Below are positions 22,434-62,634 of a stretch of 64,000 nucleotides of DNA, one piece after another. The notes under the pieces are model-generated. The model made no database searches, was not told the origin of the DNA, and saw nothing but the letters and a program-made list of their open reading frames with translations. A program made the translations under genes and the position numbers. Source of the stretch: an uncultured Lentisphaerota bacterium. Lineage in GTDB: Bacteria > Verrucomicrobiota > Kiritimatiellia > CAIQIC01. The stretch is taken from the NCBI GenBank assembly GCA_903912445.1, contig CAIWHP010000191.1:262-64261 (forward strand), written 5' to 3'. Numbering within the stretch: the stretch's first letter is position 1; each line of letters opens with the position of its first letter.

Positions 22434-23462
22434 CTAGCGCGTGGTTTCGCCCTGGTGCCAGATGCCGGGGATCAAAATCTGGCGGGGAATGGCGGGCAGG
22501 CCGAAGCGGCCGAGCTCGAGGGAGTTGATCACGGTTTCGATCGCCAGCGCCGCTAGCTGATTCTCGCGTTGAAAGATGCCTGAAAACTTGCTCGTTGGGC
22601 CCACGCCGTGAAACGCTAGGCTGATGTCTTGCGGCACGCGATAACCGAGCGACTCGACCAATTCCTTGACGACTGCCACCTGCGAGACGATGCAGTCCAC
22701 GCGGTACTTCTTGATCCAGCGCGCGAGTCGTCCTTTATCGGCCGGGCTTCCGCCTTCCAGCCAACACACAGGGAAAGCAGGATATTCGGGGTATAGGCTC
22801 GCGAACCGTTGCCGTGCTGTGGTCAGCGAATAGCCCACCTCGCTGTCTATCTTCCGCAGTGTCGCCACGCCGATATGACGATGACCACGCGTCATCAACG
22901 TTTCGAGCAACTTGACATTGTTGAGGTTGTCATCGGCATCCACGATATCCAGTTTCGAATCCGCGGGCAGCGAGCCGCTGTGTACGACCGCATAATGGTT
23001 CCAGTTCCAAGGCCAGTCGGCGACGTTGAACGGTCCGAAAATCTGCAGGATCACACCCTGGATGCCACGCGCGCGGAGCGTGCGGGCCAGTCGGGGCGCG
23101 TCCGCGGCCTTGACGCTTGTGAAGATATCCAGCTTGAACCCCAGTGCTGCGGCGCTTGCCGTAGCGTGCCGCCTATAATAGTCATGCACCATCTTGTCTT
23201 CGGGGTTGGCGAGGTTGTGGTCGGTAAGCCACGCCAGCGTGCCCCGATGCGTGCGGTGTTGCACGCCGCGCAGGTGCGTCATCAGTGCGGAGAGTTTCGC
23301 GTCGCGGCGATAACCTAGTTTTTGCGCCGTCCGGCGCACGCACTGGCGGACGGCGGCGCTGATGCGTACGTCGTTGCGCAAGGCGCGCGACACCGTGGCG
23401 TGGGAAACGCCCGCCTGCCGGGCGAGCTCCCGCATCGTGCATCTGGGGGGTGGTTTTTTCAT
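22434..23462 (-). CDS. LacI-family transcriptional regulator
   Basis: N-terminal HTH 'MRELARQAGVSHATVSRALRN' followed by a periplasmic-binding-protein-like sugar-binding fold. The start is either 23462 (MKKPPP...) or 23435 (MRELARQ). Confidence 0.85.
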   Translation of the reverse strand: MKKPPPRCTMRELARQAGVSHATVSRALRNDVRISAAVRQCVRRTAQKLGYRRDAKLSALMTHLRGVQHRTHRGTLAWLTDHNLANPEDKMVHDYYRRHATASAAALGFKLDIFTSVKAADAPRLARTLRARGIQGVILQIFGPFNVADWPWNWNHYAVVHSGSLPADSKLDIVDADDNLNNVKLLETLMTRGHRHIGVATLRKIDSEVGYSLTTARQRFASLYPEYPAFPVCWLEGGSPADKGRLARWIKKYRVDCIVSQVAVVKELVESLGYRVPQDISLAFHGVGPTSKFSGIFQRENQLAALAIETVINSLELGRFGLPAIPRQILIPGIWHQGETTR

Positions 23463-23553
23463 GCAACGGGTGCACAGCATAGCTCTTGACGGTGGCCGGG
23501 CAAGCCCATTTAATCGCGGGCGCGGAAGCTTTGCCACCCGCTGAAAGGACCAC

Positions 23554-24417
23554 ATGCACACGAACCTGTGGGTGATGGGCGCGATCAGCCTCTGGCTGAC
23601 GGGCTGCGTGCCCTCGTTGCAGCCGCTCTACACGGACAAGGACGTGGTCTTCGACCGCACGTTGCTTGGCACGTGGAGCCAGACCAACCGGGAGGACCGC
23701 TGGGTGTTCGTCGCCGAGGGAAAGAACGCCTACAAGCTGGTTCACACCGACAAGCAGGGCACGGCCGAGTTCACCGCGCATCTGGTGAACGTGCAGGGCC
23801 AGCGCTATCTCGACCTTTTCCCCAAGGATGTGGGTGCAAAATTGAATGAGCTGGCGATCTGTACCTTGATCCCTGGCCACCTGTTCCTGTGGGTCAAGGA
23901 TGTTGGCGCCGAGCTGCAACTGGCGCTGATCAGCGGCCAGAAGCTGGACAAGTTGCTCAACGCACAGCCGAAGCTGGTGCTGCACAACCGGCTTAACGAT
24001 GGACTGGTCCTGACCGCCCCGACGGCCGACCTGCAGCAGCTCTTCGCCCGCCTTGGGCCCGACGCCCTGTTCAACCCGCCCACCCGGCTGCTAAAGGAGC
24101 AATACGTAGTTCTCCAGCAATGGCTGGCTGCCTTGGACAAGGAAGATTATGCGAACTATACGAACTGCTTGCACTCGAACGCTCGAAAAATTCCTGAACA
24201 CGGCACCCGGGAGGCCATGCACTTCTGGGCGCGACAAATCAGCAGGCTGAAAAAGGATGGTTTTGAAGGTGTCTTCAAACTGGTGCCGTTCACTGGTCAA
24301 TCCCGTTTTCCGCCAGGCTCTATGCTGGCTTATCCGGTTGTCAAAGGCGCGGCCCTGAAAGAGCATCTGGTGCTGATGCAGGAGCAGGACGAATGGAAGA
24401 TCGTCCAGATATTCTAA
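23554..24417 (+). CDS. Hypothetical lipoprotein
   Basis: 'LWLTGC' lipobox after a hydrophobic N-terminus; 287 aa; no recognisable domain. Confidence 0.5.
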   Translation: MHTNLWVMGAISLWLTGCVPSLQPLYTDKDVVFDRTLLGTWSQTNREDRWVFVAEGKNAYKLVHTDKQGTAEFTAHLVNVQGQRYLDLFPKDVGAKLNELAICTLIPGHLFLWVKDVGAELQLALISGQKLDKLLNAQPKLVLHNRLNDGLVLTAPTADLQQLFARLGPDALFNPPTRLLKEQYVVLQQWLAALDKEDYANYTNCLHSNARKIPEHGTREAMHFWARQISRLKKDGFEGVFKLVPFTGQSRFPPGSMLAYPVVKGAALKEHLVLMQEQDEWKIVQIF

Positions 24418-24425
24418 AATCAACC

Positions 24426-25748
24426 ATGAACATGTTTGGTGAACGGGTTGTGGTCTGGTCGATGGTGCTGCTGATGACTAGCGGCAGCGTGGGCGCGGAC
24501 GTGCTGGAGTTTCGCGATGGCGAGGTCTGGCGCGGTACCCTGCTGGGCATGGAGGCTGGCGGCGTGCGCTGGCAGCACAAGGCCAGCCGCGAGCCGATCG
24601 CGGTGATCCCGCAGCAGGTCGGCGTCATCCGCCTGCAACGCGCCGCCGCCGCGACGTTGCCGAGGAGCAACTGCCGGCTCATTCTCGCGAACGGCGACGA
24701 AATCGCGGGTACGTTCGCCGGTCTCGATGAGCGGGAAGCGAAGGTGCTTTCCAATTTCGCCGGCAGCTTGACCGTTCCACGTACGGCCCTGCGCGCGCTG
24801 GTGTTGAGCGGGGAGCGCAAAATGCTGTTCGAAAATCCGCCGGGGCTGGAGGGTTGGACTATCACCGATCAGCAGGGCAAGCCTTCGCGCACGGTGTGGG
24901 TCTTTCGGGACGGCGCCTTCGTTGCGCGGAGCTGCGGTTTTCTTGGGCGCGAGGTGCAACTGCCGCCGGTGGCGTGCATCGAGTTCGACCTGGAGCTGAC
25001 CGAGCGTTCGGTGTTAATCGTGCAGTTCTACGCGGACGATCTGCACCGTTTTTATGGTAGCCACAGCCTGGGTTTGGAATTCAACATGCCGGCCAAGATC
25101 GTCTTGTTGCGACAGACCGATGGCCCCAACAGCGCCATGGCGGATTTGATGCAGGAATTGACGCCGTGGCTGTTCGCGGCCTCCAAGGGAAACCCCGTCC
25201 ATGTCGCCATCCGCACGGACCGGGTCAACAAAACCGTGGCCCTCCATGGCAACGGTCGGTTGATCAAGAAATGGAAAGTGACCCGCGGCAGTTTTGCTGG
25301 AGGCTCCGGGCTGGTTTTTGGGCAGCAGCAGGATTACATCGGCATCAGCCGGCTCCAGCTTTTCGAGCAGGCGGGACCGGAGGAGCCGACGGTAGCCGAG
25401 CTGAACGCCACTGCCACCAGCGATGGCGCCGTCTTGCAGAATGGCGATCGCCTCTCCGGGCGTGTGGGAGCTGTGCGCGCTGGCGTGTTGAACTTCCAGA
25501 TGGCGGAGCGCGAGCTACAGCTCCCCGTGGAACGCCTCCACTGGCTGCACTATGCCGCGCCCCCGCCGCCGGCCGCGCCGACCAACGCCGTGCAGCTCGT
25601 CTCGCACCGCTACGGCCGGCTCACGCTGGAGGTGGAGCGCTGGAGCGCGCAGCAGATTCGCGGACGCCATCCCTTGCTCGGCGCGCTGCAGCTCGACGCG
25701 TCCGCTTTCGATGCTGTGGAGTTTCCCCATGCCACAACCCGCCCATGA
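24426..25748 (+). CDS. Hypothetical secreted protein
   Basis: Start at MNMFGERVVVWSMVLLMTSGSVGA (signal peptide); 440 aa; no recognisable domain. Confidence 0.5.
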   Translation: MNMFGERVVVWSMVLLMTSGSVGADVLEFRDGEVWRGTLLGMEAGGVRWQHKASREPIAVIPQQVGVIRLQRAAAATLPRSNCRLILANGDEIAGTFAGLDEREAKVLSNFAGSLTVPRTALRALVLSGERKMLFENPPGLEGWTITDQQGKPSRTVWVFRDGAFVARSCGFLGREVQLPPVACIEFDLELTERSVLIVQFYADDLHRFYGSHSLGLEFNMPAKIVLLRQTDGPNSAMADLMQELTPWLFAASKGNPVHVAIRTDRVNKTVALHGNGRLIKKWKVTRGSFAGGSGLVFGQQQDYIGISRLQLFEQAGPEEPTVAELNATATSDGAVLQNGDRLSGRVGAVRAGVLNFQMAERELQLPVERLHWLHYAAPPPPAAPTNAVQLVSHRYGRLTLEVERWSAQQIRGRHPLLGALQLDASAFDAVEFPHATTRP

Positions 25749-25765
25749 TGTCCAAGCCTTGGAAA
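25749..25765. promoter_or_regulatory. Single near-consensus palindrome TGTCCAAGCCTTGGAAA, ending ~15 nt before the start codon at 25780 and directly 5' of an AAGGA Shine-Dalgarno-like sequence
   Basis: Read directly. It has one mismatch in the left half-site. Confidence 0.55.
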
Positions 25766-25779
25766 AGGATGAGAGCGCT

Positions 25780-26571
25780 ATGAAAAAATTCATCGTCAGC
25801 ATCGCCGGTTGCCTCGTGTTGGCCGTCGGCAGCGCCGCGGGCGCGGGGTCGCTCGCGGTGGATATGGTCATCCGGCTGGAAGGCGCGCCGGCTGATGGCC
25901 TCTGGGAGCAGCGCGACGCGCGGCTCGCGATCAAGGTGCGGCAGGTGACGCCGGGCGTCTTTGACGCGCAGGTGGAGAGCGTCGGCGGCGAGGCGCGGCA
26001 GTCGCTGCATACGCGGGTGAAAGTGGCGCCCGGGGGCAAGGCGTTGCTGGGCGGGCTGCTGAACCGGAAAATATTTTTGGAGACGCCACCCGTTGCGGGC
26101 GCGGCGCAAGCTGCGACCGGGGCGGATATGGAACGGATGCTCCAGGCCTTTGGCATGGCCAAACCCGGCAACGCGAAGCAGGCGGAACTGCAAGCCGCCA
26201 TCCAAGCGCGCGACGCCGCGAAGGTCACGGACCTGGTCATCACGCAAGGCGTCAATCCCAACATCGCGCTGCCCGACGGCAGCCGGCTGGCGCATCGGCT
26301 GGTCACGGAGAACTCCGCCGATCTGCGCATGCTGGAAATCGTCCTGCGCGAGGCCAACCCGAATCTCGGCGACCAACACGAGCGTACGATCACCGAACTC
26401 GCCATCGTGCAGGGCAATTTGCCCGCGCTGAAAATCATCCTCGCGCGCCGGCCGAATCTGCGCCTGAAAAGCAGCGCCGGCCTCCCGCTGGAAATGCTCG
26501 GCGTAAACTCCACCAACGCCGCCATCGCCGCGCTGTTCAAGACCATCATGACCGGGGGCAAGGCGCCGTGA
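25780..26571 (+). CDS. Lipoprotein with ankyrin-like repeats, ending in the conserved tail ...AIAALFKTIMTGGKAP
   Basis: Signal/lipobox 'SIAGC'. Repeated helical units (LVTENSADLRMLEIVLREANPNLGD..ELAIVQGNLPALKIILARRPNL) are ankyrin-like. The last 51 nt form conserved element copy 1. Confidence 0.55.
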   Translation: MKKFIVSIAGCLVLAVGSAAGAGSLAVDMVIRLEGAPADGLWEQRDARLAIKVRQVTPGVFDAQVESVGGEARQSLHTRVKVAPGGKALLGGLLNRKIFLETPPVAGAAQAATGADMERMLQAFGMAKPGNAKQAELQAAIQARDAAKVTDLVITQGVNPNIALPDGSRLAHRLVTENSADLRMLEIVLREANPNLGDQHERTITELAIVQGNLPALKIILARRPNLRLKSSAGLPLEMLGVNSTNAAIAALFKTIMTGGKAP

Positions 26572-26601
26572 CGATTCAATCAAGAAAGGAAGGATAGCAA
26601 C

Positions 26602-27015
26602 ATGCAGTCGATGCTTATGATAATGCTGGTGGTGGTCCTGAATCTGATCCCCAAGGAGGTCTCGATGTTTACCATGGAGATGAACAAGGGAGATGTTATG
26701 CGGTATGCAAAACAAGAGGATGGTGGTTGGAGCCTCGTGCAGCCGCAGTCCAAATCGAATCCAACTTTCCATGTGGCCGGAACAAAGCTGACCGTCAAAG
26801 CCGATGACAGAGCGCAAACATTGGATCTGGCCAAGATACTTGGGGTTGGCGAAAATGCGGACTGGCACAAATTGAAACAGACCCAAACGGGAACACTCCC
26901 GCTGCAGATTGAAGGAAAGACGAACGGGGTTGACTTCATTCTGCAAGCGAAGAAGGGGGCAGAAAGCGTTTCCCAAGTCATCAATGTACGTTGGCAGGGG
27001 AAAGAGACTAAATGA
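26602..27015 (+). CDS. Small AT-rich hypothetical protein (137 aa). The conserved 3' tail follows in the -1 frame (27012..27089, MSLPHAFKVAIAALFKDIMPGGKVP).
   Basis: ORF 26602..27015 with a hydrophobic N-terminus and clearly lower GC than the flanks. The conserved ~50-nt element lies immediately after its stop and is out of frame. Confidence 0.4.
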   Translation: MQSMLMIMLVVVLNLIPKEVSMFTMEMNKGDVMRYAKQEDGGWSLVQPQSKSNPTFHVAGTKLTVKADDRAQTLDLAKILGVGENADWHKLKQTQTGTLPLQIEGKTNGVDFILQAKKGAESVSQVINVRWQGKETK

Positions 27016-27090
27016 GTTTGCCGCACGCATTCAAAGTCGCCATAGCCGCGTTGTTCAAGGACATCATGCCCGGAGGCAAGGTGCCGTGAA

Positions 27091-27549
27091 ATGCCGGAGA
27101 AGATGGGGAGGCGGCCTGTGGTGCTGATGAGAGTGGAAGGCATCCTGCGTATCTGCCTGGGTGTGTTGCTTGGCATGGTGGGCGGAGGTATCTGGGCCTA
27201 TCAAGGCGGCACGGGTCCCGCGCTCTGCGCCAGCGGCGGCGCGCTCTGTTTCGCAACCGGCGTGACGGTGTTGCTGGTGCAAACACGCAGCGCCGGCCTG
27301 CTCTGCGCCGGGGTGGCGGCCGTCGGCTACGGACTGCTGTGGGCTGCCGCAGTCCTGCTTTGGAGGGAGCTGGCCTATGACAAAGCCGGCCACTACCTCG
27401 CCTATATCACCATGACCATCGCCAGAATGGTTTCGCTGGTCATGATGGTTGTGCTGATGTGCGCCTCGGCGCTCTGGCTGGCCACCACGTTGCGCCTCTC
27501 CGCTCAACGGAGGCCGCAGGCCCTGACGGACTTTTCAAGGCGCTCATGA
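27091..27549 (+). CDS. Small integral membrane protein (4 predicted TM helices). The conserved 3' tail (..LFKALMTGGQAP*) is encoded in the -1 frame, ending at 27569.
   Basis: ORF 27091..27549. The hydrophobic segments LRICLGVLLGMVGGGIWAY, ALCFATGVTVLLV, GLLCAGVAAVGYGLLWAAAVLLW and MVSLVMMVVLMCASALWLA are read as TM helices. The ATG comes one nt after the stop of the preceding tail ORF. Confidence 0.45.
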   Translation: MPEKMGRRPVVLMRVEGILRICLGVLLGMVGGGIWAYQGGTGPALCASGGALCFATGVTVLLVQTRSAGLLCAGVAAVGYGLLWAAAVLLWRELAYDKAGHYLAYITMTIARMVSLVMMVVLMCASALWLATTLRLSAQRRPQALTDFSRRS

Positions 27550-27624
27550 CCGGAGGGCAAGCGCCGTGACGAACGATGCGGAGATCACTATCATGTGCCG
27601 GGAAAACTGATCAGAAAGGATCCT

Positions 27625-28959
27625 ATGAACAAGCAGCATTCAGCGCAGAGGGAAGTTTCGCGGCGGATATTTCTCAAGCACACCGCGGCGGCGGCCGCCT
27701 CGCTCGGCTCGCTGACGGCCGGTATCCAGCCGGTCATGGCTGCCGGGAGCGATCGCATCCGCGTCGGGTTGATCGGCTGCGGCAATCGTGGCACCGGCGC
27801 GGCGATGAATTGCGTGCTCTCCTCGCCCGGCGTGGAACTCGTCGCGCTCGGCGATATGTTCCAGGACAAAATCGACAAGGCCCTCGTGGCGCTCAAGGAC
27901 ACCAGCGGCAAAAAGGAATGGAGCTGTTCGACGCCGTGGACCCGCGCCGACGCCATCAAGGTGACGCCGGACACGTGCTTCACCGGCTTCGATGCCTACC
28001 AGAAGGTCATCGCCAGCGGCGTGGACCTGGTCATTCTGGCGACGCCGCCGGCGTTCCGTCCGCTCCACCTCAAGGCGGCGGTGGCGGCTGGCAAACACGC
28101 GTTCATCGAAAAGCCCGTGGCGGTGGACCCGGCAGGCGCACGCTCCATCATGGCCTCCGCGGATGTGGCCAAGGAAAAAGGGCTGGCCATCGTGGCCGGC
28201 ACACAGCGCCGCCATCAGGCGCGCTACATCGAGATGATGAAGCGCGTGCAGCAGGGCGACATCGGCACGCTGCAGGGCGGCGAGTGTTATTGGGTCGGTT
28301 GCTGCGTGCGCCGGTGGGGCTTCTTCGCGCCGCGCCAGCCGCAGTGGAGCGACCTCGAATGGCAACTGCGCAACTGGTACTTCTTCACCTGGCTCTCCGG
28401 CGATCATGTCGTGGAGCAGCACGTGCACAACATCGATGTCCTCAACTGGGCCTTGGGGGCGCACCCGACCGATGCGTTGGGCATGGGTGGCCGGCAGTGG
28501 CGGACGCAACCGGAGTTCGGAAACATCTGGGACCACTTCGCGGTGCGCTATCGCTATCCGAACGGCGCGACGGTTTTGAGCATGTGCCGCCAGAACGACA
28601 ATTGCTACGAGACCGTCACCGAGACCATCACCGGCACCAAGGGCAAGGCGTTTGCCGGGCGGATTGAGGGCGCGCAGCCGTGGAAGTTCGCCGGCGACGA
28701 GCGCAGCGCTTACGAGCAGGAGCACGCGGATCTCATCGCCAGCATCCGCGCAGGCCGGCCGCTCAACGAGGGCCGGCAGGTGGCGGAGAGTACGCTCGCG
28801 GCGATCATGGGCCGCATGAGCGCCTACACCGGTCAGATCGTCCAGTGGGATTGGGTCCTGAACAAATCGCAGCTCGACCTCTGGCCGAAGGAAGACCTCA
28901 AGCTCGGCCCCTATCCCGTGCCGCCCGTGGCCGTGCCCGGCGTGACGCAACTTCTCTGA
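27625..28959 (+). CDS. Gfo/Idh/MocA-family NAD(P)-dependent oxidoreductase with a Tat signal
   Basis: 'RRIFLKHTAAAAASLG' twin-arginine signal; 'RVGLIGCGNRGTGA' Rossmann GxGxxG; 'EKP' motif (AFIEKPVAV) typical of the family. Confidence 0.85.
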   Translation: MNKQHSAQREVSRRIFLKHTAAAAASLGSLTAGIQPVMAAGSDRIRVGLIGCGNRGTGAAMNCVLSSPGVELVALGDMFQDKIDKALVALKDTSGKKEWSCSTPWTRADAIKVTPDTCFTGFDAYQKVIASGVDLVILATPPAFRPLHLKAAVAAGKHAFIEKPVAVDPAGARSIMASADVAKEKGLAIVAGTQRRHQARYIEMMKRVQQGDIGTLQGGECYWVGCCVRRWGFFAPRQPQWSDLEWQLRNWYFFTWLSGDHVVEQHVHNIDVLNWALGAHPTDALGMGGRQWRTQPEFGNIWDHFAVRYRYPNGATVLSMCRQNDNCYETVTETITGTKGKAFAGRIEGAQPWKFAGDERSAYEQEHADLIASIRAGRPLNEGRQVAESTLAAIMGRMSAYTGQIVQWDWVLNKSQLDLWPKEDLKLGPYPVPPVAVPGVTQLL

Positions 28960-28977: not shown

Positions 28978-31134
28978 ATGCCACCAGCCATGCTCAATCG
29001 TCGCGGTTTTTTGAAATGCTCCGCCGCACTGGCCGTGGCGGCGGAATGTGCGGTCGCCAAAACGCCAACGTCACCGGGGTTGGTTGCGAAGGTGGTGCGG
29101 GTGGGCGGTGTGTTGAAGATCGCGATCAACGGCCAGGTCTTCGATCCGCTGGCGTACCGCTCCTATCGGCCCACGCCCGAACTGGTGCGGGGCTTTCACG
29201 GCACCGGGCTGAAGCTGGCCAATGTCACCCATACCGGCATGCTCTGCACGCTCGATGTGCCGTACTCGCTCTTCGGCGAGGTCTGGACCGGCCCGGAGCT
29301 GTTCGACTGGAAAGCGTTCGACGCACAGATGGAGATGTTCGAAGCGAACGCGCCGGGCGCCTACTACAACATCGCGCTGCAGCTCGACACGCGCGACTGG
29401 GCGCTGCAGGCGCATCCGGATTGGTCGAACTGCTATTGGAACCTCGTCGAAATGGCGGGGCATGAGCCGTGGCGAACCGAAACTGCGAAGTCGCTACAGG
29501 AGTTCCTGCGACAGGTCGAGGCGCGCTATGGCGACCGCGTCTTCGCCTACAGCCTGCTGTGCGGCAGCTCGACCGAGTGGTACACCAACTCGCAAGGCCG
29601 TGGCCGGCCGGAGGCGGCGATCCGGGAACATCCGATCAAGACGGCGTGTTTCCGCCAGTTCACCGGCGACCCGACGGCGACGATGCCGCCGCTGGAGGAA
29701 CTGCAGCGCACATCGCACGGCGTGTTGCGCGATCCCGTTGCCGACGCGGCGGCGCTGCGCTACTGGCGCTTCCACCACGAGGTCATCGGCGACGCGATCG
29801 TGTACTTCTGCCGCAAGGCGCAGGAGGTCCTGGAGCACCGCAAACTGCTCGGCCTCTTCTACGGATATCTGACGCAGCTCAACAGCTCGCGGCTGCTGCA
29901 GGAGGGGCATCTGGGCTACGAGCGGGTCTGGCGCTGCCCCGACCTGGACATGATCTACGCACCGGCCAAATACGGCGCGCCGCGCAGTTTCGCGGGCGCC
30001 AGCGGCTACCTGCTGACGGTTGACTCACTCGATCTGCGCGACAAGCTGGTCTTCCATGAGGTGGACCACACCACCCACATCGCGCGCGGCACGGTGGAAA
30101 ACGGGCGGGAGATTCCGGGCTCGGGCACGAAGCTCCGGAACGCCTTCGAGACCCGGCAGGTGCTGCGCCGTGAATTCGCCCTGACGCGCACCAAGCGCAC
30201 CGCGCTGTGGTGGTTCGACTTCCTCGGCGGCAATTACGCCAGCGCGGAGACGATGGCCATGGTCGCCGAGTCGGCCCGCGCGCAGCGGCGCCTGGCCGAT
30301 GTCGAGATGCGCTCGGTGGCGCAGATCGCCGTGTTCGGCGACGTCCAGTCCATGTACCATGTGAACGCGCGCTCCAGTCTCGCCGACGATCTGCTGGTGC
30401 AACCGCCCGACGCGCTCGCCCGCATCGGCGCCCCGCACGACATCTACAACTTCTCCGACCTCGACCATCCCCAGCTTCCGTTCGCGCAATACAAACTGCT
30501 CATCTTCCTCAACGCCTTTTGCATCCCGCACCACAAACGCGAGTTCATCCGCGCGGAACTGCAAACCGGCAACCGGACCCTGCTCTGGCTGTACGCACCG
30601 GACTACATCCGGAAGGACGGCTTCTCGGTCGAAGGTATCTCCGGGATCACCGGCATCACCGTGGTCGCTCGCAAGGGCGACGACAGCCTGGTGCAATCCG
30701 GCAACGAGCGTTTCGGTTTCAGCAAAAAGGTTATGCCGCTGTTCGAGGTTCGCGACAAAGACGCACAAATCCTCGGCACCTACGTTTCCAACGCCGCCCC
30801 CGCGCTCGCCCGCAAGAAATTCGCCCAGCACACCGCCGTGTACAGCGCCGTCGGCAACCTGCCCTCCGCGATCTACCGCGAGATCGCGCGCGCCGCCGGG
30901 GTTCACATCTACTACGAGGGGCCCGATCCGACCTACATCAACAGCCGCCTGTTCGGCATCCACATGCAGGGCGACACAGCGCCGACGCTCACGCTTCCGC
31001 ACAACACCGCCGCGCGACTGGAAGAACTCTTCGACGGCGGCGAAGTCCGCGCCGAGCAAGGCCGCGTGCAACTCCCGAGTGCCCCCGGCGCGACCAAGCT
31101 CTATCTCCTCACCAAGGGAGACATGGAACCATGA
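28978..31134 (+). CDS. Tat-secreted putative glycoside hydrolase (GH42-like/beta-galactosidase-like; assignment tentative)
   Basis: 'MLNRRGFLKCSAALAVAA' Tat signal; 718 aa with TIM-barrel-like and trimerisation-like regions. The family call is weak. Confidence 0.45.
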   Translation: MPPAMLNRRGFLKCSAALAVAAECAVAKTPTSPGLVAKVVRVGGVLKIAINGQVFDPLAYRSYRPTPELVRGFHGTGLKLANVTHTGMLCTLDVPYSLFGEVWTGPELFDWKAFDAQMEMFEANAPGAYYNIALQLDTRDWALQAHPDWSNCYWNLVEMAGHEPWRTETAKSLQEFLRQVEARYGDRVFAYSLLCGSSTEWYTNSQGRGRPEAAIREHPIKTACFRQFTGDPTATMPPLEELQRTSHGVLRDPVADAAALRYWRFHHEVIGDAIVYFCRKAQEVLEHRKLLGLFYGYLTQLNSSRLLQEGHLGYERVWRCPDLDMIYAPAKYGAPRSFAGASGYLLTVDSLDLRDKLVFHEVDHTTHIARGTVENGREIPGSGTKLRNAFETRQVLRREFALTRTKRTALWWFDFLGGNYASAETMAMVAESARAQRRLADVEMRSVAQIAVFGDVQSMYHVNARSSLADDLLVQPPDALARIGAPHDIYNFSDLDHPQLPFAQYKLLIFLNAFCIPHHKREFIRAELQTGNRTLLWLYAPDYIRKDGFSVEGISGITGITVVARKGDDSLVQSGNERFGFSKKVMPLFEVRDKDAQILGTYVSNAAPALARKKFAQHTAVYSAVGNLPSAIYREIARAAGVHIYYEGPDPTYINSRLFGIHMQGDTAPTLTLPHNTAARLEELFDGGEVRAEQGRVQLPSAPGATKLYLLTKGDMEP

Positions 31135-32591
31135 ACACCACCATTGCCCGCAGCCTCGTGAGTGCGCTGGCGCTCGGCGCTTTGGGGACTGTTTCCAGCG
31201 AGGCGGCGCTGGCGATTCCTGCGGCGCCCGAGGGGGCGCCGGTTTCGAGTGCGCGGTATGGCGTGCGCTTGCGTGAACCCGGCGGAGCGTGGAAAGCGGC
31301 TCCTGTCTACGCGTTCTTCCAACAACATGAGTACAACAGGGCGCTGACGACGGAGTCCCAGTTCGTCACCTTTGAAGCGAGCGGCACGGTCGAGGTCGAG
31401 GTGCAGGTGACCGGCGCGGCCAAGACGCCCGTGTTGCGTCCGCTCCGCCACGGTCTCGCTCTCAAGCAGGACGGGGCGACGCTGCACTTCACGATGAGCG
31501 ACGCGACGCGCCAGCTTTGTCTCGAACTCAACGACGATCCGCGTCATCCGCTGCTGCTCTTCTCCAATCCACCCGAGACCGATGTGCCGAAGGCGGGCGA
31601 CAAACGCGTTACCTATTTCGGTCCCGGCTATCACAAGGTCAAACCGATCGAGCGGCCCGGTTATTTCGCGTGGGCCAAAGGCATGACGATCTATCTCGCG
31701 CCGGGTGCGGTGGTGGAAAGTTCGCTGTCGGTGATGCAAAACGAAGGTGTGACGATTCGCGGGCGCGGCATTTTATTCACGCCGCACGGCGAGGGTAAGA
31801 AGGCCGGCAACGTTCCGCTGACGATCAAGGAATCGAAAAATGTCCGCGTCGAGGGCATCGTGGTGGTCAGTCGCGCCGACCAATGGAGCGTTCACACCGT
31901 CACCAGCCGGGGCGTCACGTTTGAGAACTTTCATCTCCTCTCCGAGATTCGCGACGGCCTCGACATCATCAACTCGCAGGACGTGATTGTGCGCGACAGC
32001 TTCATCATGGCGCATGACGACGCGCTCTGCCTTAAAGGCATGTGGTTTGGCAAGAACCAGCCGGTGGAGCACGTGCTCGCCGAGCGTTGCATCGTGGCGA
32101 ACATGGGCGGCGGCAACGGCATCGAACTCGGTTTCGAGGCCAACGCACCGGTTTTCCAGCACAGCGTGTTTCGCGACATCGATCTGCTCTACAGCCTGCC
32201 GAATGGCGAGAAGCCCGATCCCGCGTGGCCCGAAGGCGCGTTGACCTGCCACATCCACCACACCCAAGGCGGCGTCGCGGCCAGCGTGCGCGATGTGCTC
32301 TTTGATGACATCCGGGTTGAGGAATTGCAGGACGATTTTCTGATCGATCTCCAGCCCCTCGGCGGCGCCACGAACGCGGTTGTTGACGGTGTGACGTTTC
32401 GCAACATCCGCCAACTCGGCGGCGCGCGCCGCCCCTCGCGGGTCGCAGGCCGCAAGGATTTCCCCGTGAAGAATGTCACCATCGAGAACTTGCACATCCT
32501 CGGGCAGACGGTGAGCAACGCAGCCGCCGGTAACGTTTCCACCAACGAGTTTGTCGCCGGCGTTGAATTCAAAAGCACGCGCGAAAAATAA
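31131..32591 (+). CDS. Secreted right-handed beta-helix glycoside hydrolase (GH28/pectin-lyase-fold-like)
   Basis: Signal 'MNTTIARSLVSALALGALG'. 'IVRDSFIMAHDDALCLKG' is a beta-helix motif (DD..C..K) like the GH28 catalytic region, with repetitive beta-strand periodicity. It overlaps the upstream stop (ATGA). Confidence 0.55.
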   Translation: MNTTIARSLVSALALGALGTVSSEAALAIPAAPEGAPVSSARYGVRLREPGGAWKAAPVYAFFQQHEYNRALTTESQFVTFEASGTVEVEVQVTGAAKTPVLRPLRHGLALKQDGATLHFTMSDATRQLCLELNDDPRHPLLLFSNPPETDVPKAGDKRVTYFGPGYHKVKPIERPGYFAWAKGMTIYLAPGAVVESSLSVMQNEGVTIRGRGILFTPHGEGKKAGNVPLTIKESKNVRVEGIVVVSRADQWSVHTVTSRGVTFENFHLLSEIRDGLDIINSQDVIVRDSFIMAHDDALCLKGMWFGKNQPVEHVLAERCIVANMGGGNGIELGFEANAPVFQHSVFRDIDLLYSLPNGEKPDPAWPEGALTCHIHHTQGGVAASVRDVLFDDIRVEELQDDFLIDLQPLGGATNAVVDGVTFRNIRQLGGARRPSRVAGRKDFPVKNVTIENLHILGQTVSNAAAGNVSTNEFVAGVEFKSTREK

Positions 32592-32592
32592 T

Positions 32593-34167
32593 ATGAGCAA
32601 CGGCAACCACACTCTGAACGCCAGTATCACCCGTAGCATCGTGAGCGCGCTGGCGCTCGGTGCTTTCACGACGCTGGCGCAACAGACTAATTCGTCGCCC
32701 GGCGCGATCCACATCACCGAGCGCGTGCTCACCGAGTTCAAAGGCTGGGGTATTGTGCCTGCGTGGTATGACCGCGCGCCAGCATTGTATGGCACCGGCA
32801 AACCGGCCGCGGGCGAAGGTTCATGGCTGCCGAAGGCTGGCGCGGAACCTCTGCTGGTGCATCGCATGCTCGGTGGCATCGGGTTCGACTATTTCCGCCT
32901 GCCGGTCTCGCCGCTGACCAGTGTGCGCGAGGGCGCGCTCGATGAGGCGCGCCTCCAGGATTTGCGCGACAACCTCACCATCCTGCAAAAAGTTTCACTG
33001 CAAGCGCGCTATATCCTGACGGTGTGGTCGCCGCCGGCCTACATGAAACTGCCTGACCATGTCCGCTGGGGCAAACAGGAAGACCGTCTGCAGTATCTCG
33101 ATCCGACCTTCGCCGACGGGCACGGTTGGGACTTCGCTGACTTCTTCGTGGACATTGCAAAACATCTCCGCGCACACGGCTTTCCCGCGCCGGCGGCGAT
33201 CGTTCCGCAAAACGAGCCCGGCACCGCGCGCACCTACGATTCCTGCTTGTGGACCAAGACCGCAGAACAGCAGCAGGCCTGGCGCAACACCGCAAAGTTG
33301 CTGCGCACCAAACTCGATGCCGCTGGTTTCAAGGACACGCTCGTGCTCGGACCCGATACCGAAGGCTCGCACACACAGGCCATCACGACGCTGCTCGGCG
33401 ACTTCTCCAACGGCAAGTTCTCGGTGCTCGAACAGGATTCCGCGCTACGCGAGGCACTCGGCGGTTTCAGCTTCCATCAATACAGCACCAGCGAACGCAT
33501 CGACTCGTTCCGCACGGCGCTGCACGCCTATCCGGGCAAGGACGTGTGGATGACCGAATACTCCAAGTGGCTCGGCATCCGTGGCGAACTGCGCGAGAAA
33601 AGCAGCAACTTCGAACTCGATAGCGCGCTCGACACCGTGCGACGCATGGGCAGCGACTTCGTCGATTTCCGCGTCACTCGCTGGTTCTTCTGGCGCGGCT
33701 GGCACGTCAGCAGCGCCGCCGACGATGAGCACCTGCTCTACGGCCCGAAGGAGCGCCCGCAAATGACCAAACTCGGCCGGTTCTTCGGACAACTCTGCCA
33801 CGCTGTGCGCCCCGGCTGGCGCGTCAAGGCGACGACCAGCACCGTGCCGGACCTGCGTGCCGATAACGAGCCAATCATCGCCAAACACAAATCGAGCGGC
33901 AACATGATGAGCGTGCCGGTGGATGTGATTGCCTTTGAAAACGCCGACGGCACAGCAAGCTGCGTTGTGCTCGCAAACTGGAAATCCATGCCGCGCACGG
34001 TCTCCTTGCTGACGGGACTCAAAGGCGCGCGCGCCACACCCTTCGTTACCGACAAAACTCGCGACATGACCGCAGGGTCTGCATGCACCATCACCAACGG
34101 CAAACTCGATGGTGACGACCTGATGTTGCCACCGCACAGTATCACCCTGCTCGTCGCTTCGCCGTAA
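32593..34167 (+). CDS. Glycoside hydrolase family 30-like protein
   Basis: Signal 'SITRSIVSALALGAF'. 'TVWSPPAYMK' matches the GH30 hallmark (SPWSPPAWMK). The TIM barrel is followed by a beta-sandwich C-terminal region. Confidence 0.65.
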   Translation: MSNGNHTLNASITRSIVSALALGAFTTLAQQTNSSPGAIHITERVLTEFKGWGIVPAWYDRAPALYGTGKPAAGEGSWLPKAGAEPLLVHRMLGGIGFDYFRLPVSPLTSVREGALDEARLQDLRDNLTILQKVSLQARYILTVWSPPAYMKLPDHVRWGKQEDRLQYLDPTFADGHGWDFADFFVDIAKHLRAHGFPAPAAIVPQNEPGTARTYDSCLWTKTAEQQQAWRNTAKLLRTKLDAAGFKDTLVLGPDTEGSHTQAITTLLGDFSNGKFSVLEQDSALREALGGFSFHQYSTSERIDSFRTALHAYPGKDVWMTEYSKWLGIRGELREKSSNFELDSALDTVRRMGSDFVDFRVTRWFFWRGWHVSSAADDEHLLYGPKERPQMTKLGRFFGQLCHAVRPGWRVKATTSTVPDLRADNEPIIAKHKSSGNMMSVPVDVIAFENADGTASCVVLANWKSMPRTVSLLTGLKGARATPFVTDKTRDMTAGSACTITNGKLDGDDLMLPPHSITLLVASP

Positions 34168-34247: not shown

Positions 34248-36770
34248 ATGCACTCAACCATCACCCGCAGCCTCCTAAGCGCGTTGGCGCTCGGCTATGC
34301 CACCAAGTTGCCGGTGCGGGCGCAGGATACAACTCAACCCATCCAAGTCTCCGGCATCTACCCGCACCTCACGGTCTTCAACTCCGATCCGAAGCGCGAA
34401 AAGCCGGAGCCGGAGTGCGGGCTCGGCGCGGTGGTGCCATGGGCGGGGAAGCTGTGGAGCACGACGTACACGTCTCATGCGCTCGGTCGCGGCAACGACA
34501 AGCTCTTCGCCATCCTGCCGGACCTGTCGCTGGAGATTCGCCCGGAGAGTGTGGGCGGGACGAGCGCCTGCCGGATGCTTCATCGCGAGTCGAAGCAGTT
34601 GTTCATCGCTTCGTATGCGATTGATGAGGCGGGCAAGGTGCGCGTCATCCCGCGCGACAAGTTGCCCGGACGTCTCACCGCTTTGGCGCGGCATCTCACC
34701 GATCCGGCGAACAAGGTGCTCTACCTGACGCAGGAGGGCGCGGTGTATGAGGTGGACGTGCATTCGCTCGCGGTGACGGAGCTTTTCAAGAAGCCGCTGC
34801 CCGGCTGGCACTACAAAGGCGCGTGGACCGCACAGGGCCGTTTTATTGTCGCGGCGAATGGCGAGGAACCGGCCCCCTCGCCGTTTTGGAAAGTGGACTA
34901 CACCAGCGCGGCAACGAGGTTCGAGACGGAGAAGCTGACTTGGCAGTATCTGCAAACGCCGTATCAGCCGCTCGCGAAGCCGCGCAGCACCGGGCAGACG
35001 ATGTGGAAGGGCATCAGCGAAGACATCGGCAATCTCGGCGAATGGGACGGCACAACATGGCGCATTCTCTCGCGGCGACAACATCTCGACATCACCGGTC
35101 CCGGTGGACTCACCGGCGCGACCAGCGCTGACGAACCGGTCTGGGCGCTCGGTTGGGACTTGCGCTCTGCCTTCGTCAAAGTGCGCGAGAAGTCCGGTAC
35201 GTGGACGACCTATCGCCTGCCCAAAGCGAGTTACAGCGCCGATGGCGTGCATGGCTCGAATACCGAATGGCCGCGCATTTGCGAGGTCGGCGACGGTCCG
35301 CGACTCATGTTCTTACACAACGGTCTCTACGAATTCCCAGCCGACTTTCGCAATGGTCACAGCGCCGGGTTGCGACACCTTGCTTCCACACTCGTCACCG
35401 TCACTGACATGACAAAATGGAAGGGCAAACTCGTCTTTAGCCAGCAGGCAACTTCGGTTCACGGCATTCCCGCGCTGGTTCCCGGTCAGCCGCATTCGAA
35501 TATCCAGTTTTTGCAACGCGAAGAGCTTCCGACCTGGGGGCCTGCCGAAGCTCGCGGCGGCGTGTGGGTGGAAGATGTGGTGCAAGCCAACACGCCCAGC
35601 GATGCCATCCTCATCGGTGGCTATGAGCAGCGCTGCCTGCATCTCGCGAACAGCAGCGACAGCGCCGTGACCTTCGCCCTCGAAGTTGACGCGGACGGCA
35701 GCGGCCTGTGGAAGGCGATAATGACCCGCAAGTTATCGGCGAAGGGCTACGCACCGGTCATCGTGCCCGCGGATCTCAAGGCCCAGTGGCTGCGCGTGAA
35801 GACCGATGCCGGCTGCATCGCCACCGCTTTTCTGCACGTCTCATCGCCACGCCAATCATCGCCCGACGAAGCCTGCATCTTCAACGGCCTCGCCACCACC
35901 TCGGAATCCGCGACGAGCATCAGCGGCATCGTGCGCGCCGGTTTCCCCACCACGAACCTGCAATTTCTGACCCGCGATGGCCGCTACTTCGAGGTCGACG
36001 AAAAGCTCAACTTCCACGCCACCGCCGCACCGGACGCAGTCGCTAAGCTGCAAGACACGCACGCGCTGAAGAACGGGTTCACCGAAGACGCCGCATCGAT
36101 CATCGTTACGCGCTACGATGGGCAGCGTTTCCGTTTGCCGAAAGGCGATGCCGCATTGAGTAGCGCCCCTGCCTCGCGCGGCGTGCGCGAATGCATCCAA
36201 GAGCGTTACCTCGCCAACTTCCACGGCACCTTCTACGAAGTCCCACGAGGTGGCACCTCTCCGAGCGGCCAGCGGAACATGCCCGACTACCAGCGCATGA
36301 AGCCCGTCGCCACGCACAACAAACCTATCGCCGACTTTTGCACCTGGCGCGGAATGCTCGTGTTGAGTGGTGTGAAACCTAACGCCAGCACCGACGGCCA
36401 CATCTTCGGCAGCGCCGACGCCAAGCTCTGGTTCGGCGCCATTGATGACCTCTGGAAACTCGGCAAGCCCCGCGGCCACGGCGGTCCGTGGAAGGACACC
36501 GCCGTGAAAGCCGGCACGCCCAGCGACGCCTACCTCATGACCGGCTACGACAAGAAGACGCTCACCCTTTCGCATGATGCCAAACAACCCGTCGAGTTCA
36601 CCGTCATGGTGGACTTCTACGCCGACGGCCAGTGGCACGACTACCAGCGCCTCACCATCGAACCCGGCAAGCCGCTCACGCACGAGTTCCCCGCCGGCTT
36701 CACCGCGCACTGGGTGCGCGTGAAACTGAGCGCTGCTTGTCGGGCTAGCGCGCAACTGGATTACCGATAA
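34248..36770 (+). CDS. Large secreted hypothetical protein (840 aa), same signal-peptide family as the two preceding genes
   Basis: Signal 'MHSTITRSLLSALALGYA'. The long ORF has coding-like composition; no recognisable catalytic motif. Confidence 0.5.
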   Translation: MHSTITRSLLSALALGYATKLPVRAQDTTQPIQVSGIYPHLTVFNSDPKREKPEPECGLGAVVPWAGKLWSTTYTSHALGRGNDKLFAILPDLSLEIRPESVGGTSACRMLHRESKQLFIASYAIDEAGKVRVIPRDKLPGRLTALARHLTDPANKVLYLTQEGAVYEVDVHSLAVTELFKKPLPGWHYKGAWTAQGRFIVAANGEEPAPSPFWKVDYTSAATRFETEKLTWQYLQTPYQPLAKPRSTGQTMWKGISEDIGNLGEWDGTTWRILSRRQHLDITGPGGLTGATSADEPVWALGWDLRSAFVKVREKSGTWTTYRLPKASYSADGVHGSNTEWPRICEVGDGPRLMFLHNGLYEFPADFRNGHSAGLRHLASTLVTVTDMTKWKGKLVFSQQATSVHGIPALVPGQPHSNIQFLQREELPTWGPAEARGGVWVEDVVQANTPSDAILIGGYEQRCLHLANSSDSAVTFALEVDADGSGLWKAIMTRKLSAKGYAPVIVPADLKAQWLRVKTDAGCIATAFLHVSSPRQSSPDEACIFNGLATTSESATSISGIVRAGFPTTNLQFLTRDGRYFEVDEKLNFHATAAPDAVAKLQDTHALKNGFTEDAASIIVTRYDGQRFRLPKGDAALSSAPASRGVRECIQERYLANFHGTFYEVPRGGTSPSGQRNMPDYQRMKPVATHNKPIADFCTWRGMLVLSGVKPNASTDGHIFGSADAKLWFGAIDDLWKLGKPRGHGGPWKDTAVKAGTPSDAYLMTGYDKKTLTLSHDAKQPVEFTVMVDFYADGQWHDYQRLTIEPGKPLTHEFPAGFTAHWVRVKLSAACRASAQLDYR

Positions 36771-57975: not shown

Positions 57976-58032
57976 GTCTGCCGGTGGCCGCGCGAAGAAA
58001 TGAACCGAGCTAATGGAGCTGGAGAAGAAACT

Positions 58033-62631: not shown

Positions 62632-62634
62632 ACT

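Follow-up and report, generated by a model that had tools for sequence, protein, structure and literature searches.

The 64,000-nt stretch of DNA analysed here (the window) carries three direct copies of a 51–58-nt element, R, in the order A-R-B-R-C-R-D, with B and C being two unrelated genes located in the junction between gene A and gene D. At a probability of about 0.6 we regard R1-B-R2-C-R3 as two single-gene segments lying in the A|D junction, each bracketed by copies of this junction, so that R is present three times because two unrelated genes sit there. R behaves as a duplicated 3' end of A, and the proposal of the initial annotation that the conserved unit is DNA rather than a shared functional peptide holds. 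The locus is a real but modest local hotspot of insertion and deletion; its features are listed in Table 1.

Table 1. Features of the A|D junction, with positions in the window.
Feature	Position	Strand	Description
Gene A	25780..26571	+	ORF; lipoprotein with lipobox IAGC and ankyrin-like C-terminal half
R1	26514..26571	+	Reference copy; native 3' terminus of gene A (...NAAIAALFKTIMTGGKAP-stop)
Spacer 1	26572..26601	+	Carries ribosome-binding site of B (AAGGAAGG)
Gene B	26602..27015	+	Foreign single-gene insert; membrane-anchored all-beta protein, uncharacterised family
Filler	27016..27031	+	16 nt between B stop and start of detectable A 3'-end homology
R2	27032..27089	+	Middle copy; 84% identity to R1 over 58 nt
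Spacer 2	27090..27117	+	Carries ribosome-binding site of C (GGGGAGG)
Gene C	27118..27549	+	143-aa multi-pass membrane protein, about 4 hydrophobic segments
R3	27512..27569	+	Distal copy; 67% identity over 58 nt
Promoter-like site of D	27566..27594	+	-35 GTGACG, 17-nt spacer, -10 TATCAT
Gene D	27625..28959	+	Gfo/Idh/MocA oxidoreductase with TAT signal; conserved right flank of the variable junction

A scan of all 64 kb with a degenerate 28-mer (at most 3 mismatches) returned exactly three sites, which correspond to the R copies, and no fourth copy in the window, as compared to 0.00 matches expected by chance (100 shuffles), bearing out the three ~51-nt copies noted initially. They are spaced by 518 nt and 480 nt. 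Whereas the left part of R3 is degenerate, its right ~37 nt (about 27531–27569) are well conserved, and over the last 11 codons all three copies lie in the same codon register without any indel, the apparent indel among them being confined to the left part of R3. R1 is in frame with A and supplies its last 17 codons and the stop codon. R2 lies in the -1 frame relative to B, outside any conserved protein, and a 25-codon ORF (27012–27089) with an ATG that overlaps the stop codon of B runs through it; inspection of the ORFs confirmed the initial description of both tails. The corresponding description for C is correct in that the stop codon of C (27547–27549) lies inside R3 in a frame other than that of the A tail, with the last ~5 codons and the stop of C being read from R3, but has to be amended as the ends of the copies are free of indels. 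Homology to A is not detectable upstream of 27028–27032 (R2) or of about 27519 (R3), and the bodies of A, B, and C are unrelated, as had been stated (best pairwise BLASTP E value 0.47 in a database of these three proteins only).

The locus was then compared across about five lineages, all of them metagenome assemblies. In contig L001, encoding an A that is 86% identical, the order is A-R-C-R-D, and in L002 as well as in L006/L013-15 (a Lentisphaerae MAG and contigs from several samples) it is A-R-D. Hence, 0, 1, or 2 genes separate the A tail from D, with one R per boundary, in agreement with the cassette-like array originally suggested. In the insert-free relatives R directly adjoins the promoter-like site of D, and the only R copy of L002 and of L006 has the sequence of the A-tail type as far as the stop codon, after which the D spacer follows. 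Clock-like rooting identifies L001 as outgroup, which would make C ancestral and the insert-free state of L002 and L006 a secondary loss, and such a loss would place the crossover in the last 7–12 nt of R.

Between the LacI gene and D the gene content differs in every related contig, and several microhomology deletions, involving 6-nt microhomologies, have occurred. Both features would be expected if the R copies were remnants of tandem A paralogues or alleles that had been overwritten by unrelated genes, or of an older, longer array decaying by deletion, without any insertion tied to R. The ORF through R2, which keeps the A-frame register back to an ATG, may be read in the same way, as may contigs L007 and L008, which begin exactly at 27016, suggesting that different sequences are located left of R2 in the population. 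We nevertheless regard this origin as unlikely, as homology to A is undetectable beyond the boundaries given above, B is clearly a foreign gene that all relatives lack, and a way to place B and C between the remnants would still be required.

Pattern scans of metagenome contigs and GTDB genomes located R in the relatives at this locus only; a related MAG of 191 contigs contains a single copy matching the pattern, and two R patterns gave no match in viral contigs. Two further matches of the scans were rejected as chance hits, the unrelated gene concerned ending with ...KELMAGGGAP-stop. The possibility that R is solely a local triplication, raised initially as an objection, is thus partly borne out, with R being confined to this locus in every collection searched. 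A dispersed repeat of the REP/MITE type was rejected as there are only 3 copies, all at this locus, and a single one in the related MAG. We also rejected a putative fourth copy at the upstream gene of L001 (...LLQTKGQAP-stop), where the DNA similarity covers 16 nt and has p values of 0.03–0.98, depending on the copy compared.

R is native to A, as it is in frame with A also in L001 and in L006/L013, and since the ankyrin-like similarity extends into residues encoded by R. A has only 3 relatives among 5.8e9 proteins. Its designation as 'ankyrin-like' misses the Pfam threshold (Ank_2, E 0.012), but gains support from designed ankyrin-repeat proteins that it matches (PDB, E 1.3e-5), and weaker DARPin alignments (E 0.26–0.48) reach residue 252. 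Thus, R probably encodes the last ankyrin-like helix of A, a short tail, and the stop codon; the structure model of A (pLDDT 39) is unusable, so that the helix assignment is based on sequence matches only.

B, in contrast, is a genuine foreign gene that ends independently of the tail. Its GC content is about 0.50 (0.55/0.34/0.61 at the three codon positions) compared to about 0.65 in the surroundings, corroborating the foreign origin already proposed, and it is absent from L001, L002, L006, and L013-15, its junctions being seen in one assembly only. The 73 remote homologues (identity up to 46%, mostly 125–154 aa) are colinear with B end to end, terminate where B does (...VRWxxxxx-stop), and occur in unrelated genomic contexts without R. 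In the AlphaFold model (pLDDT 92) the last strand comprises residues 121–131, indicating that the predicted fold is complete without the R tail; no significant neighbour of the model was found in the PDB (best TM-score 0.33). Viral contigs and plasmids gave no match to B, and neither B nor C could be assigned to an RM or any other family above threshold (Pfam, NCBIfam, PHROGs). Upstream of B, spacer 1 has ATCA(A)GAAAGGAAG in common with the ribosome-binding region upstream of D, a similarity that is marginal (shuffling p 0.04 for the window and 0.006 for L001).

C is found only in this lineage. The initial annotation let it start at 27091; GTG 27118 is most likely the start codon, being preceded by a ribosome-binding site and called as such in three other assemblies. 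Compared with L001, dN/dS is 0.34 in the frame of C vs 0.74 and 1.74 in the other frames, dS is 0.31, the same as for A, and there is no indel. The C product is identical on L007 and L008, and C ends with ...RRS at the same TGA within R3 in L001 and in the 99.8%-identical L007/L008. C is thus a real gene under purifying selection that is co-inherited with A and, like B, ends independently of the tail. Spacer 2 is orthologous to the spacer following the A tail in L001 (shuffling p 0.001), and its similarity to spacer 3 is not significant.

The ends of B and C bear directly on the idea that R is a C-terminal peptide tag common to A, B, and C that is out of frame due to homopolymer errors, recent frameshifts, or programmed frameshifting. 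One base added to AAA (27010–27012) or TTTT (27531–27534) would indeed put the tails in frame, and several of the differences between the copies are synonymous in the tail frame. However, the B family ends with B, the B model is complete without the tail, and TAA directly precedes the ATG of the R2 ORF. Moreover, the C terminus is retained in L001 despite 14% nucleotide divergence, L001 has neither the T-run nor the LFK motif in the tail frame, and no further protein encoded in the window contains the motif, which in protein collections is restricted to A orthologues. We therefore consider a common tag highly improbable, and the decaying sorting tag and the sequencing frameshifts considered at first are contradicted by the ends of the B homologues and of C in L001. 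Likewise, the suggested recoding found no support as there is no slippery heptamer, L001 has CTTCC in place of TTTT at 27531–27534, the R2 ORF is directly preceded by a stop codon, and no structure is evident. A PEP-CTERM-like sorting signal was also rejected, the motif being in frame only in A orthologues and the tail being devoid of a transmembrane segment.

We also asked if R acts as RNA, as the initial annotation had considered for a terminator or another RNA element, but the structure prediction did not substantiate this, with six fold z-scores ranging from -0.64 to +0.94. The alignment fold of R revealed 0 compensatory pairs and no covariation, Rfam gave no match to R at E values up to 1, and none of the R copies has a terminator-like site.

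At its distal end the junction also serves D as putative promoter region. The site listed in Table 1 is the sole promoter-like match in 25400–27800, and its -35 hexamer shares bases with the R3 stop codon. Both hexamers are invariant in the window, L001, L002, and L006 (four lineages), whereas the spacer between them varies. This arrangement raises the question if R has been kept three times as a regulatory signal for the following gene, either as promoter-upstream element or as mini-ORF for translational coupling. The start of the next gene within 28–55 nt of each R and the stop codons of B and C, both overlapping an ATG of the tail frame (ATGA), are in line with such a function, as are the -35 hexamer at the R3 stop codon and the unusual conservation of the right part of R3, in which the window and L001 differ at only 1 of 42 nt, compared to about 20% expected for 4-fold sites (P about 0.001, post hoc). 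Yet a matching -10 hexamer is present at R3 alone, no promoter-like site was found after R1 or R2, and R has no RNA structure, covariation, or Rfam family. The same R3 segment also varies freely between the insert-free L002 and L006 (6/30 positions differ), so we deem a regulatory role very doubtful. The conservation seen between the window and L001 is unmatched in the insert-free strains, which also counts against insertion as the origin of the array.

If B and C were inserted with duplication of the target, C would have entered the junction earlier, followed recently by the foreign B, and each insertion would have left a junction copy on both sides of the insert. This might be achieved by a circular DNA, carrying an R-like segment and one gene, that recombines with the resident R in a Campbell-type single crossover, or, alternatively, by a widely staggered break that is filled in. 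The enzyme, which might be RecA-type, illegitimate, or site-specific, can only be inferred, as can the position of the crossover. The proximal copy R1 would still serve as the C-terminus of A, while the distal copy R3 would keep the -35 region of D and the sequence upstream of it beside D and incidentally provide C with its last codons and stop; the middle copy R2 would be a relic. B and C, having no promoter of their own in view, are presumably transcribed by read-through from A. The R repeats and other short homologies would permit loss as well, resulting in the 0-, 1-, and 2-insert states among the relatives.

When R1 and R2 are compared with the tail of A in L006, which among the relatives lacking B and C is the closest, the differences fit a crossover inside R. 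The insert-facing halves (right half of R1 and left half of R2) differ from L006 at 9/58 positions and the outer halves at 3/58 (one-sided p 0.06), a mosaic that is suggestive only. Of these, the right half of R2 shows 2/30 differences, and the left half contains 4 changes from G/C to A/T. Several observations argue against duplication by insertion. The direction of the C event, gain or loss, is ambiguous, and the last 7–12 nt of R are not the likeliest resolution site for homologous recombination. Furthermore, 9/58 differences between R1 and R2 are many for a recent in-situ duplication, and the model accounts neither for the 16-nt filler nor for the first R-linked copy of B.

A dedicated enzyme was considered as an alternative. 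R might serve as attachment site for a site-specific recombinase whose gene lies elsewhere in the genome, with B and C being integrase-less cassettes and a fixed crossover near the 3' end of R; the cassettes would either resemble cis-mobilizable elements accreted at a gene 3' end or be integron-like, having their own site. The precision of the 0/1/2 states, in which every boundary has one R, conforms to this, each unit is bounded by direct repeats of the 3' end of the target gene as in 3'-end accretion of integrative elements or CIMEs, and the downstream R copies have diverged along their whole length, as cassette-borne sites do. In addition, a loss of C in L002 and L006 would put the crossover where a fixed core predicts it, although the position of this junction is compatible with a fixed crossover rather than diagnostic of it. 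Tandem islands delimited by gene 3'-end repeats, some of them without integration genes, provide a precedent (PMC3146451).

The initial annotation had seen no recombinase, and this holds for the whole 64 kb, the region examined for an integrase, in which none of about 37 genes belongs to an integrase, transposase, or recombinase family. R has no inverted repeat or dyad architecture, it is single in the related MAG and was found nowhere else in genome, metagenome, or viral collections, and the mosaic points, if only slightly, to a crossover in its middle. Since deletions at 6-nt microhomologies occur at this locus, a 7-nt junction does not need a dedicated enzyme. Taken together, we judge a recombinase acting on R to be rather unlikely. 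The attC sites of integrons are imperfect palindromes with R''/L''-L'/R' boxes and a GTTRRRY core, and they fold as single strands. GTTCAAG in R deviates from this core, and the integron logic put forward initially is not supported either, as the 64 kb contain no IntI, no attC-like palindrome, and no folding signal. It is also unlikely that these Lentisphaerae genomes encode, outside the window, a dedicated recombinase that uses R as site of a minimal integron-like gene-capture platform. Promoterless single genes would then be captured successively where a lipoprotein gene ends, every cassette with a diverged site of its own, and the platform would provide transcription.

The reading of B and C as insertions, which we prefer, is closest to insertion with long target duplication, a class that to our knowledge has been described from genome comparisons only, mostly for RM systems, and for which we know of no established mechanism. 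In this class (Nobusato et al. 2000; Furuta, Abe & Kobayashi, Nucleic Acids Res 2010, PMC2853133) inserts without mobility genes are flanked by direct repeats of >30 bp, an example from H. influenzae being repeats of 46 bp that overlap the 3' end of a gene (PMC2853133). As in these cases, the inserts at the A|D junction are present or absent among close relatives with aligning flanks (B is absent from L001, B and C are absent from L002 and L006/L013-15), and the direct repeats exceed 30 bp (R1/R2 58 nt, 84%; R3 about 37–58 nt) and align to the single R of the insert-free L002 and L006. [quoted passage not shown] In contrast to the known cases, which are single events involving RM systems, a cargo that is typical but not strictly defining, each event here comprises one small non-RM gene, the same target has been used twice, giving rise to a three-copy array, and the target doubles as coding tail and promoter region of the neighbour.

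Tandem integrative or cis-mobilizable elements at a gene 3' end, such as the ssrA islands of Dehalococcoides (PMC3146451; IME/CIME review, PMC5704250), likewise result from successive insertions at one 3' end with a direct repeat each, are variable in number between strains, and partly lack integration genes. These islands, however, span kilobases, at least some have a serine or tyrosine integrase by attL, and their repeat is about 20 bp long, whereas the units described here are single genes of 0.45–0.5 kb without a recombinase within 64 kb, and R measures 37–58 nt. The units have in common with integron cassettes that they are promoterless, consist of a single gene (~0.5 kb), are in one orientation with a site-like repeat at each 3' end, and are presumably expressed from an upstream promoter, but IntI, an attI or Pc platform, an attC-like imperfect palindrome, and a single-strand folding signal are all missing and the repeat stems from the end of the coding sequence that lies upstream. 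In Neisseria, minimal mobile elements are whole-gene cassettes between two conserved genes that are exchanged by homologous recombination after transformation. They also involve strain-variable genes between conserved flanks, here LacI/A and D, and no mobility genes, but use homology in the flanking genes and create no internal direct repeats of gene ends.

The acquisition of single genes without transposase or integrase is poorly understood in bacteria, and at this locus co-occurring strains have 0, 1, or 2 inserts at a single 50-nt target, a compact natural series that includes a recent foreign gene (B) and an older lineage-specific one (C). As the target combines the end of A with the putative promoter region of D, its duplication preserves both functions, which shows why it can be tolerated or may even be needed. 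Practical relevance is limited since the organisms are uncultured, the cargo has no assigned function, and the element is confined to one locus. In a weaker variant of the gene-capture scenario, it is possible that this lineage habitually inserts genes with boundary duplications of ~50 nt. As a separate observation, three adjacent, unrelated genes for secreted enzymes in the window (31131, 32593, 34248) have 5' ends of ~52 nt in common, for which such a habit could also account.

The repeated element R (~51-58 nt) occurs in the window as three copies, all direct, with start-to-start distances of 518 and 480 nt. Searched for as a degenerate 28-mer allowing up to three mismatches, the element turned up at these three sites alone in 64 kb, where shuffles expect 0.00, and a window-wide repeat search revealed no further copy. 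An ORF and frame check bore out the frame relations described in the initial annotation: after gene B, R2 lies in the -1 frame within a 25-codon ORF whose ATG overlaps B's TGA (27012-27015), and the TGA of gene C (27547-27549) is that of a conserved TCATGA within R3. As had been stated there, the bodies of genes A, B and C bear no sequence resemblance to one another. For the 16 nt separating B's stop from recognisable R2 no source was identified; spacer 1 (26572-26601) and the ribosome-binding region of D have ATCA(A)GAAAGGAAG in common (p 0.04 and 0.006).

Features of the A|D junction (window positions) and gene order in related contigs
Feature or contig	Position or gene order	Description
Gene A	25780-26571	lipoprotein, ankyrin-like C-terminal half
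R1	26514-26571	encodes end of gene A: ...AAIAALFKTIMTGGKAP*
Gene B	26602-27015	small gene
R2	27032-27089	84% identity with R1 over 58 nt
Gene C	ends at 27549	membrane protein
R3	27512-27569	67% identity over 58 nt; right ~37 nt far better kept than left part
Promoter-like site	27566-27594	GTGACG, 17-nt spacer, TATCAT; directly downstream of distal R copy
Gene D	27625-28959	Gfo/Idh/MocA oxidoreductase
L001 (Logan SRR24319188)	A-R-C-R-D	A 86% identical; B absent
L002/L005	A-R-D	A with out-of-frame 5' deletion and 1-nt deletion
L006, L013-15 (Lentisphaerae MAG and identical contigs, several samples)	A-R-D	in-frame 363-nt internal deletion in A
L007/L008	R2-C-R3-D	99.83% identity with window from 27016 onward

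Gene A is very rare, with three proteins among 5.8 billion. The contigs of A proteins, scans for the DNA pattern in metagenomes and in GTDB genomes (one per species), and look-ups of C and D together yielded five related lineages or assemblies. Inserts are present in some of them and absent in others, with exactly one R at every boundary across the related contigs, in agreement with the cassette-like arrangement proposed initially. The search for further copies led to this single locus: the pattern is present once in the 191-contig MAG, the metagenome and GTDB-species scans gave nothing beyond this locus save two chance matches in an unrelated gene, and R was not found in viral contigs. R is therefore not a dispersed element, a reading that fails its defining test as copies lie at this junction only, but is specific to the A|D junction.

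Gene B has a GC content of 50% within a 65% GC region, and its codon-position GC is what a genuine gene of a genome lower in GC would typically show. While a word-indexed search gave no matches, HMMER run in full against 1.84 billion representatives returned 73 homologues (identity ≤46%). Most have 125-154 aa and align colinearly with B over residues 1 to ~133, and they end as B does, a few charged residues past a conserved VRW. The contigs of the closest homologue, the only contexts with DNA examined, are marine, unrelated and devoid of R. In a confident AlphaFold model (47 sequences, pLDDT 92) an N-terminal helix is combined with an all-beta domain, the last strand of which stops at residue 131; the predicted fold has no significant neighbour in the PDB. 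As the homologues end alike and the last strand stops at 131, B's stop is native and R2 lies outside B. The foreign origin suggested by its GC content is upheld, and since B is foreign and confined to one lineage it is a recent gain.

Gene C occurs in the window lineage and L001 only. It probably starts at GTG 27118 (143 aa), as in the product recorded in other assemblies, rather than at 27091 as annotated initially. Between window and L001 it shows zero indels, a dN/dS of 0.34 when read as annotated (0.74 and 1.74 in the alternative frames) and a dS of 0.31, equal to that of A, demonstrating that C is a real gene that travelled with A. In L001 C likewise ends ...RRS* at the same TGA within R3; there CTTCC stands in place of the window's T-run, and translation in the tail frame gives ...SSKALM.

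These ends of B and C rule out three readings of the out-of-frame tails: a C-terminal sorting tag decaying in B and C is incompatible with the native stop of B and the ...RRS* end of C, frameshift sequencing errors with that same stop and the conserved TGA, and recoding with the replaced T-run. A regulatory or terminator-like RNA found no support either, as fold z-scores ranged from -0.64 to +0.94, the alignment fold contained no compensatory pair, Rfam gave nothing at E up to 1 and no terminator-like site was present at R. The locus fails the tests that define integrons, sorting tags, frameshift sites, dispersed repeats and known RNA families.

The description of A as ankyrin-like holds in part: the similarity stays below the Pfam threshold, but designed ankyrin-repeat proteins are matched with E 1.3e-5. 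Weaker alignments to such proteins (E 0.26-0.48) extend to residue 252/263, suggesting that the R-encoded residues carry on the ankyrin-like repeats, and the R tail is in A's frame also in L001 and L006/L013. The structure model of A (pLDDT 39) is too poor to inform. Just 5' of A's ribosome-binding site (25752-25770) a palindromic TTCCAAGG..TTGGAAAA-type motif is present in the window, L001, L002 and L006, a candidate operator or promoter element of this gene.

Inserts present in some relatives and absent in others, flanking direct repeats of >30 bp that correspond to one copy where the insert is missing, the lack of a mobility gene and deviant insert GC together characterize the known class 'insertion with long target duplication' (PMC2853133). 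The A|D locus shows this pattern and works like an iterated form of it, differing in that one target received insertions twice; in appearance it is a small-scale version of the tandem accretion at a gene 3' end in Dehalococcoides ssrA islands (PMC3146451). If a small circle carrying an R-like segment recombined with the resident R by one Campbell-type crossover, the product would be exactly R-spacer-gene-R. Relative to L006, the closest relative without B and C, the insert-facing halves (R1 right, R2 left) differ at 9/58 positions and the outer halves at 3/58, a mosaic that is no more than suggestive of a crossover inside R (one-sided p 0.06). Four G/C to A/T changes in the left half of R2 would fit arrival with a low-GC insert, or relaxed selection.

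By A and D distances L001 falls outside the pair of window and L006 type, and dS of C equals that of A, so that C probably predates all strains sampled and disappeared in the L002/L006 lineage. As the single R of L002/L006 is of the A-tail type as far as the stop codon, this loss must have resolved in the last 7-12 nt common to R1 and R3, a length similar to that of the 6-nt microhomologies at the two internal deletions that A underwent independently (GAAAAT in L006, GCATCG in L002). A fixed site-specific crossover would leave the same junction, and for this reason a recombinase acting in trans at R is kept as the main rival. We consider it unlikely: R has no internal dyad, and none of the ~37 genes over 64 kb belongs to an integrase, transposase or other recombinase family, consistent with the initial remark that no integrase was in view. 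Their content is that of an ordinary chromosomal region (FtsK, ABC exporter, sugar-degrading enzymes). A dedicated integrase-distal cassette platform appears improbable.

The promoter-like site is the sole sigma-70-like match in 25400-27800, and its -35 hexamer overlaps R's stop codon. Both hexamers are the same in the window, L001, L002 and L006, whereas the spacer differs at four positions, as would be expected if D had a real promoter here. With a candidate D promoter overlapping R's stop, the junction would have two jobs, as A's end and as the start of D's control region, a double role that we infer from conservation. In the right part of R3 plus 8 nt, window and L001 differ at 1/42 positions, compared to ~20% at four-fold sites (post hoc P ~0.001), but L002 and L006 differ at 6/30 positions in the same segment, so that strong constraint is not established.

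From the divergent LacI-family regulator gene to D (22434-27624) gene content differs in every related contig (L001, L002, L006, L013), making this stretch a local plasticity zone, whose lipoprotein and membrane genes have few known relatives or none. It holds 287-aa and 451-aa genes plus A, B and C in the window, 263-aa and 330-aa genes plus A and C in L001, a truncated 451-aa gene, an insert and deleted A in L002, and deleted A alone in L006. The L002 insert (388-740, ~350 nt), with terminal inverted repeats cctgaaaaccgaagttg ... caacttcggttttcagg, replaces the 451-aa gene's 3' portion together with the 5' portion of A, and resembles a MITE. In L001 the lipoprotein gene of 330 aa that precedes A ends ...FLKRLPRLLQTKGQAP* (L001 1848-1896), recalling the R tail (..LFKALMTGGQAP*); the DNA match covers only 16 nt and its significance is not robust. 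In the L006-type strain, a 38-kb contig carries an IS200/IS605-type Y1 transposase gene (PF01797) some 4.3 kb upstream of A, between a 448-aa gene and a C39-like peptidase gene, where the window has only 92 nt. L007 and L008, ENA assemblies of the 99.83%-identical strain, both begin at 27016, the first base 3' of B's stop; they may share reads, or the leftward DNA may be repeated or polymorphic in those samples, in which case one edge of the B segment would lie exactly at B's stop.

Elsewhere in the window three consecutive genes begin with the same ~52-nt segment (31131-31183, 32593-32666, 34248-34300; DNA 75-83% identical), with weaker copies at 17867, 19084 and 37503. It encodes a signal-peptide-like N-terminus (MNTTIARSLVSALALGA, ..LNASITRSIVSALALGAF, MHSTITRSLLSALALGYA), and the family matches of the three genes are sub-threshold GH28-like, sub-threshold GH30-like and none. 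This segment is a 5'-end counterpart of the shared 3' end R and may have arisen by the same kind of boundary duplication. Two genes separated by 4.6 kb share a 68-nt repeat with 75% identity at their starts (58029-58096 and 62631-62698), and a 34-nt repeat is present in three copies at 720-929, close to the left end.
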